The notes below the pieces were generated by a model. It saw only the letters and a program-made list of their open reading frames with translations, made no database searches and had not been told where the DNA came from. Below are positions 9,610-10,525 of a stretch of 21,329 bases of DNA, one piece after another. The translations under genes and the position numbers were made by a program. Positions within the stretch are counted from its first letter, which is position 1, and every line of letters starts with the position of its first letter. The stretch lies in the IMG/VR virus record IMGVR_UViG_3300029610_000212, one strand, 5' to 3'. Source of the DNA: a virus. Lineage: Duplodnaviria; Heunggongvirae; Uroviricota; Caudoviricetes.

Positions 9610-10525
9610 TCGGTCTTTTAAATTGGTGGATAGATAGTATTTAACACACTTTAATGTGTGTTCTAAAAATAAGCGGCAGGATTCTATTAATATGATTTAA
9701 GCATTTCAATACTCACATAATACTCAAAAATCTGATAAGCATTATGAAAAAAAACATTATAACAATAACATTACACTCAGCGGCTAAAAGAAAAACATCC
9801 GGCACGCATAAGAATGATTAGCAAAACTTAACTTTAAGCTTCCATCTCCGAACAAACATACTCAAACAAACAACCAATTATGTTTTATTCATCACAATCA
9901 CACGAGTTTTAACACAGACACATAAAGAAAATTTCACATCCCACATCATAACAAAACATCCCCCCGCCCGAGATGTTATAACTTTGTTTCATTTACATCC
10001 TATCTCAGAATAAAATTCCTCAATTAAAATACATTAAGAACCATTAATATTATTAGCTTGCAACTGATTTTCAATAAAAATTTACCAACCGTAATTAAAC
10101 ACATGGGTATTAATATTTATTCATTTATATACAATACAACATCTTTCATATCACTTTAGATGACACGTAATAAAATAGTCACCAAATATTGAAGATGCAT
10201 ATAAAAAATAATTATTAATTTTAAAAATTCATTCAAACAATTTATAAAAATACGAAAAATGCCATCTCCATAATAGCCGTATAAGACTATTCAATTTATT
10301 GATCGGTTTAATGGCATCCGCTACCTTTTTTAAACTGTAAGCAGCAAAAAATCCACTTCACATGCACCACGGCTGAAGTGACAACTAACGACTTTTTGGA
10401 TCATTTATCAACCCGCAGCCGCGACATCAAATTAATGTGGTCCAACACCCACATTATCGTAAGTTGACCGACCAGCCACAGTACGTTCTTGTATATGGCG
10501 TGTGGGAGGCATATCACAAAAACGA
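9610..10525 (-). promoter_or_regulatory. About 900-bp extremely AT-rich non-coding region upstream of the adhesin gene (likely promoter/leader; candidate nucleoid-protein-silenced region)
   Basis: No ORF of 60 codons or more on either strand between the tail-fiber-assembly stop (10526) and the adhesin ATG (9609); manual scan finds only ORFs of 25 codons or fewer. Long A/T runs throughout. One GC-rich inverted repeat (TAACATC...GATGTTA around 9950-9975). Confidence 0.45.
9643..9662 (-). promoter_or_regulatory. Perfect 7-bp inverted repeat (AACACAC-N6-GTGTGTT) 34-53 nt upstream of the adhesin start: candidate operator or 5'UTR hairpin
   Basis: AACACAC (9643-9649) and GTGTGTT (9656-9662) are exact reverse complements with a 6-nt spacer, located in the putative promoter/leader. 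Confidence 0.3.

Follow-up and report, generated by a model that had tools for sequence, protein, structure and literature searches.

Morons are autonomous cargo genes that come with their own promoter and terminator and have a base composition unlike that of the flanking phage genes, a concept due to Hendrix and colleagues. Examples are bor and lom of lambda, the sopE cassette and the cdt-I prophages. The eib genes of Escherichia coli form another group. They code for immunoglobulin-binding trimeric autotransporters, and their expression reportedly requires ibrAB. In the case of eibG, a fragment of 168 bp upstream of the gene was enough for plasmid complementation (PMC13534694). The same study described the Cla/Yal "EibG-like" adhesins of LEE-negative STEC, which are Eib-like and are found in distinct genomic contexts with evidence of mobility, the non-Eib lineages having less than 50% pairwise similarity (Nat Commun 2026, PMC13534694). 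As for regulation, H-NS represses autotransporter genes of E. coli, the trimeric UpaG included (PMC5012682).

We have analyzed a window of 21,329 bp, the whole stretch of the IMG/VR record IMGVR_UViG_3300029610_000212 (Caudoviricetes), that carries an adhesin gene. Positions 1–7000 match ecpB-E, ykgJ and yagU of E. coli with 99% identity, and an integrase remnant and a tRNA-Thr fragment are located at about 7369–7585. The minus strand codes for a YadA-like trimeric autotransporter adhesin of 428 aa at 8317–9603 (Pfam YadA_head, YadA_stalk and YadA_anchor; PDB relatives YadA, BpaC and EibD) and for the tail-fibre-assembly (TFA) protein at 10526–11110 (Caudo_TAP, PF02413, E = 9e-42). TFA closes the tail operon of the prophage, with the tail fibre, gpI, gpJ, gpW, gpD, gpU, the tape-measure protein, the tail chaperone and the tube ahead of it, and it is the upstream boundary of the 916-bp gap (9610–10525) that is the subject of this analysis. 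The cassette occupies the cargo slot behind TFA, where a contractile-tail prophage integrated next to yagU in E. coli has its att-proximal end. In related phages this site is an end or a direct junction: TFA is the terminal gene in phage Chuche, some prophages lack the cassette, and in E. coli EC12 the slot is occupied by cdtABC. A gap and a horizontally acquired adhesin gene located after the tail-fibre genes in a prophage of E. coli are an ordinary case of a known arrangement, and we consider that the gap, made of a phage end, a spacer and a conserved promoter unit, is probably the non-coding portion of a mobile cassette with the adhesin as cargo (a moron).

The original prediction had described the gap as an AT-rich leader of about 900 bp free of ORFs, and this description holds. 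The GC content of the 916 bp is 0.318, against 0.498 for the whole window, 0.391 for the adhesin CDS, 0.436 for the TFA gene and 0.533 for the remaining phage sequence (tail genes, 0.495–0.533), and in sliding windows the lowest 300-bp value of the whole window, 0.25, falls inside the gap (10051–10350). TpA steps appear 10 times per 100 bp in the AT-rich region vs. 4.8 window-wide. The AT-rich island clearly exceeds chance. Besides, there is no internal ORF of at least 60 aa in the region, the longest one having 50 aa and overlapping the TFA stop codon, and the region yielded no conserved protein-coding gene. Its stop-free stretches reach at most 63 aa, compared to 76 ± 16 aa in shuffles, so the region is as ORF-poor as random AT-rich DNA and no more. 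The search of the gap against phage and plasmid collections gave no matches. What was not quite right was to regard such a gap as unusual beside a packed phage operon, since the place is actually a cargo slot at the prophage end; gaps of about 300–1200 bp lie ahead of the YadA-like adhesin genes in every relative examined.

The composition of the gap is not uniform and we propose that it consists of three parts. The segment next to TFA (10443–10525, GC 0.47) is phage DNA of the TFA module (77–82% identity, the match stopping at 10443 in the related loci L002 and L003) and follows TFA genes also in other E. coli prophages that have no adhesin. The junction between phage and cassette is found at about 10437–10443; in STEC309-type loci the match runs on past 10443. 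The second part would be a distal AT-rich spacer of about 670 bp (9780–10442, GC about 0.31), whose sense strand is rich in T and G, and the third a conserved regulatory unit at 9604–9779. Judging by their conservation, only these approximately 175 bases adjoining the gene, which comprise the conserved promoter and a short leader, look functional. The general reading of the region as an AT-rich, non-coding front end of the adhesin gene with a regulatory part is supported.

The promoter unit was compared in six lineages, namely the E. coli cassette types A (that of the window), B, C and D and two homologues on Proteus chromosomes. Its elements are an upstream repeat block, the promoter, a discriminator, the approximately 71-nt leader and, at 9603, the start codon. 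The predicted sigma-70 promoter (9681–9709, minus strand; −35 TTGAAA at 9709–9704, 17-nt spacer, −10 TAGAAT at 9686–9681) is the top promoter site of the region, with a score of 10/12, and its TTG and TAnAAT are invariant across the six lineages. The type B promoter has the same sequence and the aligned Proteus site, TTGACA-N17-TAAAAT, scores 11/12; in types C and D the −35 is weak (TTGCGC) and the promoter scan does not call the site. The number of promoter-like sites in the region, 5 vs. 6.4 ± 3.2 in shuffles, is not above chance. The columns of CCTGCCGCTTATTTTTA (9664–9680, minus strand), a G+C-rich discriminator that includes the transcript start, are invariant or nearly so, and the usual 7-nt spacing after the −10 predicts transcription to start at G9674 (± 2). 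From one conserved sigma-70 promoter together with this block, the leader is predicted to be short, about 71 nt. The long 5'UTR that had been envisaged is not supported, since the sole promoter conserved in the six lineages is found at a distance of 71 nt from the ATG that they share.

The promoter-leader block has about 90% identity when types A and B are compared. Further upstream, a direct repeat TGTAAT-N5-TGTTAT (9759–9775, minus strand, about −101 to −85) is conserved in E. coli types A–D and absent in the Proteus alignment; with the form TGTwAT-N5-TGTTAT, we infer that it is a candidate regulator site. A search of TAA genes that are more distant (Proteus sp., Morganella, Edwardsiella and Providencia) did not find the promoter motif. 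Regarding the beginning of the protein, the homologues start with MKKLFVASV, and the alignments of cassettes and Proteus loci place the conserved start codon (MKKLF...) at 9601–9603, i.e., at 9603 and not at 9609, the ATG at 9609–9607 being unique to type A.

Other elements pointed out originally, a GC-rich hairpin at about 9950–9975 and the A8 and C6 tracts, are indeed present. The hairpin (AACATC(T)-loop-(G)GATGTT followed by TTTGTTATG; 9955–9977, minus strand, −10 kcal/mol, z = −1.85) has a G/C-rich loop with the G6/C6 tract, and its stem is not kept in type B. Another hairpin with an 8-bp stem spans the junction (10433–10456, minus strand, −10.3 kcal/mol, z = −1.2) and is terminator-like with a poor T tail. 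The best candidate in the window for the intrinsic terminator of the tail operon is a predicted hairpin at 10346–10380 (minus strand; CACTTCA...TGAAGTG followed by GA and T6, −14 kcal/mol, z = −1.0); its T run is deleted in type B, hence it is not conserved. None of these three sense-strand hairpins is strong as a terminator and none is conserved in type B, so that some read-through from the late operon may take place upon induction. We discarded AATCCYRCCGCTTAWTTTTA as a terminator, the motif having no complementary 5' arm in the window; an exact scan retrieved seven unrelated large phage contigs in which it forms the 3' half of an intrinsic terminator, and a similar scan with TTGAAATGCTTAAATCATAT gave one unrelated contig, a chance match. 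Downstream of the adhesin, a long-range stem at 8250–8330 (z = −1.35, not significant) gives a weak terminator prediction, and the homology to other cassettes stops at about 8265.

The A8 tract is located at 9747–9754 (T8 on the sense strand) and the C6 tract at 9960–9965. The length of the T tract is 8 in type A, 5 in B, 7 in C and 4 in D, and is constant within each type. Phase variation at these tracts was considered and rejected, as there was no length polymorphism in an independent metagenome copy of the locus that is 99.9% identical (L033) or among the type C copies. Besides, the positions of T8 (about −73 to −80) and of G6 (about −290) are not those expected in a phase-variable promoter.

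The order tail fibre or TFA, AT-rich gap and YadA-like gene is found in EC11, KY180, A2, RM11911 and five IMG/VR prophages, and also in P-EibE and PhiR12_3. Among type C copies the upstream DNA is 98–99% identical over at least 638 bp, with differing tail genes ahead, and type B, which is found in a non-phage context, still aligns over 9610–10499. These comparisons show that the upstream DNA travels with the adhesin gene. A TFA pseudogene in type B was discarded, since tblastn gave no match and the DNA resembled the last TFA codons only faintly. Searching the genome contigs with the adhesin retrieved two Proteus loci only. The nearest homologues outside E. coli are those of Proteus, followed by Edwardsiella, Morganella, Xenorhabdus and Providencia, and their upstream gaps have 300–735 bp and a GC content 12–21 points under that of their coding sequences. 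Given that the closest of these homologues are chromosomal Proteus genes with the same promoter, the source of the adhesin was probably a low-GC, Morganellaceae-like donor, which would best explain the AT-richness.

The distal spacer is a different case. It is homologous only to type B, with about 65% identity (locus L001) and indels of 1, 2, 4, 5, 7, 10 and 11 nt. At the 4-fold degenerate positions of the CDS, types A and B have 79% identity, so the spacer sequence appears unconstrained, although this difference in identity between spacer and CDS could partly come from recombination homogenising the coding sequences. Rfam scans at E up to 10 returned only noise, with 11–17 bits vs. gathering scores of 32–117. 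The folding energy of the sense strand of the spacer gave z = −2.15, one of 20 shuffles folding as well; we rejected this as a signal of RNA structure, as it was not reproduced in type B (z = −0.45), in type C (+0.47) or on the antisense strand (−0.37). In the same way, conserved small ORFs were rejected: of 16 frames tested, two were open in type B and both lacked a conserved start codon. A metagenome scan retrieved only the three types already known, and three lineages could be aligned.

In the cargo cassette that we favor, the adhesin would be transcribed on its own in the lysogen from the proximal promoter, whose conservation is observed and whose activity is predicted from it, and the AT-rich spacer would separate the adhesin from the late tail operon. 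The opposite view would be that the adhesin has no independent promoter of consequence and owes most of its expression to read-through from the late tail operon upon induction. Adhesin and tail operon are on the same strand, no strong conserved intrinsic terminator is found from the TFA stop to the adhesin ATG, and the sense-strand RNA, with C 0.11 and G 0.20, would be a poor Rho loading substrate. However, the same promoter is found ahead of the gene in the non-phage context of type B and in Proteus chromosomes with no phage genes nearby, and the promoter block is conserved above synonymous sites, so that we regard dependence on read-through as highly improbable. A further alternative concerns the palindrome AACACAC-ATTAAA-GTGTGTT (9643–9662, minus strand), which is exact and located 34–53 nt upstream of the ATG at 9609, as the original prediction indicated. 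It could be the operator of a prophage-specific repressor, or an mRNA-stabilising leader hairpin, and provide type-specific regulation. Its 7-bp arms are perfect (9/10 over 10-bp arms), its position at +13 to +32 of the predicted leader is typical of operators, the RNA hairpin has −8.4 kcal/mol (local z = −2.9 for a 36-nt piece), and it is unchanged in the L033 copy. Against this, the palindrome is found in type A only, with an 11-bp gap at its position in type B and non-palindromic sequence in types C, D and Proteus, and no second copy hints at a regulon, the sole weak partner being a 74% match at 10447–10465. We counted the perfect inverted repeats (stem of at least 7, loop of 3–10) and compared them with 500 dinucleotide shuffles: 3 were observed vs. 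1.1 ± 1.3, and 13.6% of the shuffles reach 3, therefore the palindromes are not beyond chance. An operator or stabilising role is in our opinion unlikely, and the idea of a regulatory element of the whole family is not supported, the palindrome being confined to type A and such repeats not being enriched; it would rather be a lineage-specific feature of the leader than a family-wide operator.

The remaining alternatives concern the spacer. It is very hard to sustain that the adhesin is regulated by a small RNA or protein encoded in this region, or by a long structured 5'UTR. The sense strand of the whole spacer folds somewhat below shuffles and a 33-codon frame on the plus strand (10058–10159) is open in type B, with an in-frame 6-nt insertion; but the folding excess is missing in type B, in type C and on the antisense strand, there is no significant Rfam family, and the frame is one among 16 and lacks a conserved start codon. 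In addition, the spacer diverges more than synonymous sites and the distal sequence is entirely unshared by types C and D. The small RNA suggested originally is thus disfavored, and neither a described RNA family, nor conservation among loci, nor a start far upstream (the latter by prediction only) was found that would indicate a cis-regulatory RNA. As to H-NS, GC values of 0.25–0.32 over hundreds of bp, in surroundings of about 0.50, are of the kind bound by this protein, and silencing is plausible from the composition. DNA this AT-rich is a preferred substrate of H-NS in E. coli. There is one site with one mismatch to the TCGATAAATT-like H-NS motif (10293–10302) and three with two mismatches, a number that the AT content would predict, and these sites are not kept in type B; neither was a 10–11-bp AA/TT periodicity (A-tract phasing) detected in the region. 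By its composition the spacer would be a likely platform for H-NS-type silencing. A step further, the spacer may have been selected for composition, as a sequence-independent silencing or insulating platform of H-NS type with about 30% GC over several hundred bp ahead of YadA-like adhesin genes, both prophage-borne and chromosomal, which we advance only tentatively. The accompanying picture, in which length and AT content are kept, the sequence is free to turn over and the whole moves with the gene as a unit, is likewise speculative. If true, it would be a tidy example of cargo genes kept quiet in lysogens, an idea that is already mainstream. Alternatively, the spacer might be neutral baggage, AT-rich intergenic DNA of a low-GC donor that plays no part in silencing or insulation, and only the proximal 175 bp would matter, which is conceivable but rather unlikely. 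The divergence beyond synonymous sites, the indels of every length, the failure to detect a conserved motif, ORF or structure in the spacer, the variation of the gap in relatives from 300 to about 1200 bp and the mere 300 bp that Proteus homologues need point in this direction. On the other hand, 28–30% GC (approximately) is kept over 400–900 bp in all four E. coli types despite the turnover of the sequence, and with the composition of a preferred H-NS substrate some binding is hard to avoid.

Returning to the cargo cassette, the likely promoter, transcription start and true start codon of a prophage-borne adhesin can be placed, as predictions, and the unit to clone for expression studies is about 175 bp and not 916 bp. 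The palindrome is not a feature of the family, and the adhesin moves with its upstream DNA between prophages and chromosomal sites. Beyond annotation the finding matters little.

The closest parallels in gene order are the eib prophages of E. coli ECOR-9 (P-EibE, AF151676) and PhiR12_3, where the YadA-like gene also comes right after a TFA-type ORF on the same strand, behind an ORF-free AT-rich gap (GC 0.32–0.33) in which a palindrome or stem-loop precedes the ATG by about 100 nt. However, their gaps have 358–364 bp instead of 916 bp and there is no similarity in the upstream DNA. The adhesin itself was rejected as a member of the Eib family (clusters EibA-H), being about 25% identical to EibE and having a weak match to EibD (E = 1e-6); the gene order is Eib-like but the protein is no Eib. 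The Cla/Yal study includes a strain, JNEC-KY180, that has the type C cassette, although upstream regions were outside its analysis (PMC13534694). The promoters of UpaG/EhaG, UpaC and UpaH are similar in having an AT-rich region upstream of a horizontally acquired surface adhesin, UpaG being trimeric too (PMC5012682), but they are chromosomal and not prophage-borne, there is no sequence similarity, and at our locus a link to H-NS is suggested by the composition. Compared with morons, the non-coding front end is unusually long here and the terminator after the gene is just weakly predicted. In other respects the cassette resembles them: it lies between the last tail gene and the prophage end on the att side, in a slot that holds cdtABC in another strain, its GC content is 0.32–0.39 vs. 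0.53 for the phage, and it has a predicted promoter of its own, a sigma-70 site conserved in silico in six lineages with non-phage contexts included.

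The AT-rich gap of 916 bp (10525-9610) between the tail-fibre-assembly (TFA) gene and the YadA-like adhesin gene represents the front, non-coding part of a mobile adhesin cassette. The sense strand of everything surrounding it is the minus strand. In this direction come first a contractile-tail gene set (tube, tail chaperone, tape-measure protein, gpU, gpD, gpW, gpJ and gpI, minus), then the tail fibre gene (12900-11110, minus), the TFA gene (11110-10526, minus; Caudo_TAP, E = 9e-42), the gap (minus) and an adhesin ORF of 430 codons (9609-8317, minus) with YadA_head, YadA_stalk and YadA_anchor domains. 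Between the adhesin and yagU are located an IS3-family integrase-core fragment (7667-8230) and, at ~7369-7585, an att-type scar made up of an integrase remnant and a 3' fragment of tRNA-Thr; ARAGORN called no intact tRNA. The core genes yagU, ykgJ and ecpE-B come last and, since they are 99% identical to thousands of E. coli genomes, the host is E. coli. The adhesin sits in the cargo slot of a prophage, which stretches from the last tail gene to the att-side end. In E. coli EC12 (locus L014, 4484-7120) the matching slot beside yagU, which corresponds to window ~7600-10525, is occupied by cdtABC (cytolethal distending toxin), flanked by prophage tail-fibre genes and an integrase remnant. Inside the TFA CDS (10569-10767, minus), the Rfam family IS009 matches below threshold (40 bits vs. 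a gathering score of 117, E = 4e-7), which most likely reflects homology to a TFA remnant in the defining genome of that family and not an RNA gene.

Among solved structures the relatives of the adhesin are YadA, BpaC and, weakly, EibD. The gene contains a 78-bp (26-aa) tandem repeat at 8678-8919 (3.1 copies, 89% match), and the homologue lengths of 402, 428 and 454 aa are steps of one such repeat; therefore, the stalk length appears to vary with repeat copy number. Outside E. coli, the closest protein relatives found belong to Proteus, and after it to Edwardsiella, Morganella, Xenorhabdus and Providencia. Residues 300-414 (8360-8704), at the C-terminal stalk and anchor, also showed 37-38% identity to proteins that carry the annotation 'tail protein' in lytic phages (~90 kb) of Proteus and Cronobacter, e.g., Privateer and vB_CsaP_009.

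The original prediction described a long, AT-rich and ORF-free region and considered it consistent with a silenced, regulator-dependent promoter region of the H-NS type, possibly with a long 5'UTR or a small RNA. The description holds, and the interpretation was only partly supported. The GC content of the gap was 0.318 vs. 0.498 for the window, whose minimum over 300 bp (0.25, at 10051-10350) falls inside the gap, and there were no ORFs of at least 60 aa. The palindrome AACACAC-N6-GTGTGTT (9643-9662), the hairpin (9955-9977) and the A8 (9747-9754) and C6 (9960-9965) tracts are all present. The AT-rich island is far beyond chance and the small features are at chance level: we counted three perfect inverted repeats (1.1 ± 1.3 in shuffles), five promoter-like sites (6.4 ± 3.2) and a longest stop-free stretch of 63 aa (76 ± 16).

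We have compared the window with the other E. coli versions of the cassette. The window is the reference for type A, and the metagenome contig L033 matches it at 99.9% identity over 7539-11550, with only two substitutions inside the gap (10126 and 9900). L033 diverges abruptly at 11551-11703, within the tail-fibre gene (33 substitutions in ~150 bp), a mosaic joint in this coding sequence. Type B, found in 11 complete E. coli genomes (e.g., STEC309) and two metagenome contigs in a non-phage context of IS elements and asrABC, aligns across window 9610-10499 with ~65% identity. Types C (EC11, JNEC-KY180, A2, five IMG/VR prophages and two metagenome contigs) and D (RM11911) share with the window only the proximal 170-190 bp. 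The type C copies are 98-99% identical to one another over at least 638 bp upstream, although the tail genes before them are of the baseplate-J type in some copies and of the lambda-J type in others, so the upstream DNA travels with the adhesin gene rather than with the phage. At the distal end, 10443-10525 matches the DNA downstream of TFA genes in adhesin-less prophages, and this homology ends at ~10437-10443. In type B the match runs on across that point and the last TFA codons have left a faint resemblance, which suggests that the type B cassette was once located behind a TFA gene too. The related loci divide the gap into three zones.

The best sigma-70-like site of the gap, TTGAAA (9709-9704) and TAGAAT (9686-9681) with a 17-nt spacer, reads along the sense strand and scores 10/12. 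The alignment covered types A-D and two chromosomal homologues, from Proteus columbae and P. penneri (53-64% protein identity), which have TetR-family and DUF417 genes upstream, not phage genes. Invariant in it were TTG in the -35, TAnAAT in the -10 and, after the latter, C(C/T)nnC(C/A)nCTTATTnTT; the remaining Proteus upstream DNA was not alignable with the E. coli types. The aligned Proteus site, TTGACA-N17-TAAAAT (11/12), is the top one in its upstream DNA. The type B promoter is identical to that of the window; in types C and D the -35 is weak (TTGCGC), and because of this the promoter scan did not call the site. Given the usual spacing, transcription would start at about G9674 with a leader of only ~71 nt, which does not support a long 5'UTR. 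Of the two ATGs, the second (9603, MKKLF...) is the conserved start codon, and the one at 9609 is found in type A only. The four E. coli types also share a block upstream of the -35 that reaches ~-105 and holds a TGTwAT-N5-TGTTAT direct repeat (9775-9759) and a CTTATC motif, which might be regulator sites. The conserved motif AATCC(C/T)(A/G)CCGCTTATTTTTA appears as well in unrelated large viral contigs (L018, L021, L022, L024, L027-L029), as the 3' arm and T-run of an intrinsic terminator (AAGCGGCAGGA...TCCCGCCGCTT); these matches are coincidental, and relevant when the motif serves as a search pattern.

In the predicted leader, the palindrome occupies +13 to +32 (predicted hairpin of -8.4 kcal/mol). 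Type B has an 11-bp gap exactly there, and in types C, D and Proteus a stretch of about the same length is not palindromic, so a family-wide operator is unsupported and the palindrome is lineage-specific. Three terminator-like hairpins on the sense (minus) strand, at 10456-10433, 10380-10346 (with a U6 run) and 9977-9955, are all weak (z -1.0 to -1.9) and none is retained in type B. The sense-strand T8 tract, ~40 nt upstream of the -35, has 8, 5, 7 and 4 nt in types A, B, C and D. Its length is constant within each type and unchanged in L033, and nothing favours phase variation.

Between types A and B the CDS is 94% identical in protein, 91% in DNA and 79% at four-fold degenerate sites. The promoter-leader block is ~90% identical, indicating that the proximal block (9604-9779) is under purifying selection. 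The distal spacer (9780-10442), ~65% identical and with indels of 1, 2, 4, 5, 7, 10 and 11 nt, is no more constrained than synonymous sites. None of the 16 small-ORF frames tested was conserved with a start codon, the gap had no match in phage or plasmid collections, and the Rfam scan gave no match in the distal spacer. Folded as sense RNA, the whole spacer was mildly more stable than shuffles (z = -2.15), an excess not reproduced in type B (-0.45), type C (+0.47) or the antisense strand (-0.37). Lacking an Rfam match, a reproducible folding excess and sequence constraint, a small RNA is not supported. The gap is built as a short conserved promoter-leader unit beside the gene, with a long, fast-evolving AT-rich spacer ahead of it.

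Over 400-900 bp, all cassette types hold ~28-30% GC; the sense strand has T > A in every type and G > C in all except type D (GC skew -0.01). The regions upstream of the Eib genes and of the Proteus homologues show this pattern too. In more distant loci, small chromosomal YadA-like genes of Proteus sp., Morganella, Edwardsiella and Providencia (L037, L038, L040, L041), the gaps are of 430-735 bp and 12-21 GC points below the CDS; that of Proteus sp. NMG38-2 has 432 bp and 15.5% GC. The simplest reading is a low-GC donor of both the gene and its front end, in which intergenic DNA of this kind is the norm. H-NS prefers DNA of such AT-rich composition as substrate in E. coli, and silencing of the gap by H-NS is plausible. 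Beyond composition, the motif search and AA/TT phasing gave no support: the one near-consensus motif (10293-10302) is not conserved and no helical phasing of AA/TT dinucleotides was seen. E. coli autotransporter genes, including the trimeric UpaG, have been reported as H-NS-repressed (PMC5012682).

The arrangement of this front end is already known, and its general interest is low. The cassette fits a phage moron in position, composition and predicted promoter, the terminator being uncertain. In a 2026 study on EibG-like adhesins, 168 bp from upstream of eibG served as a sufficient signal for expression, and the new mobile adhesin lineages Cla and Yal were described (PMC13534694); one of the strains in that study has a type C cassette. 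The layout of TFA-like ORF, AT-rich gap and trimeric adhesin gene is like that of the eib genes of the ECOR-9 prophages. P-EibE, for example, has 358 bp of AT-rich DNA carrying an annotated stem-loop between its TFA-like ORF and eibE, and this gene order recurs in phage PhiR12_3. However, the upstream sequences are unrelated to those of eib and the proteins only ~25% identical, pointing to the same kind of arrangement in a different family.
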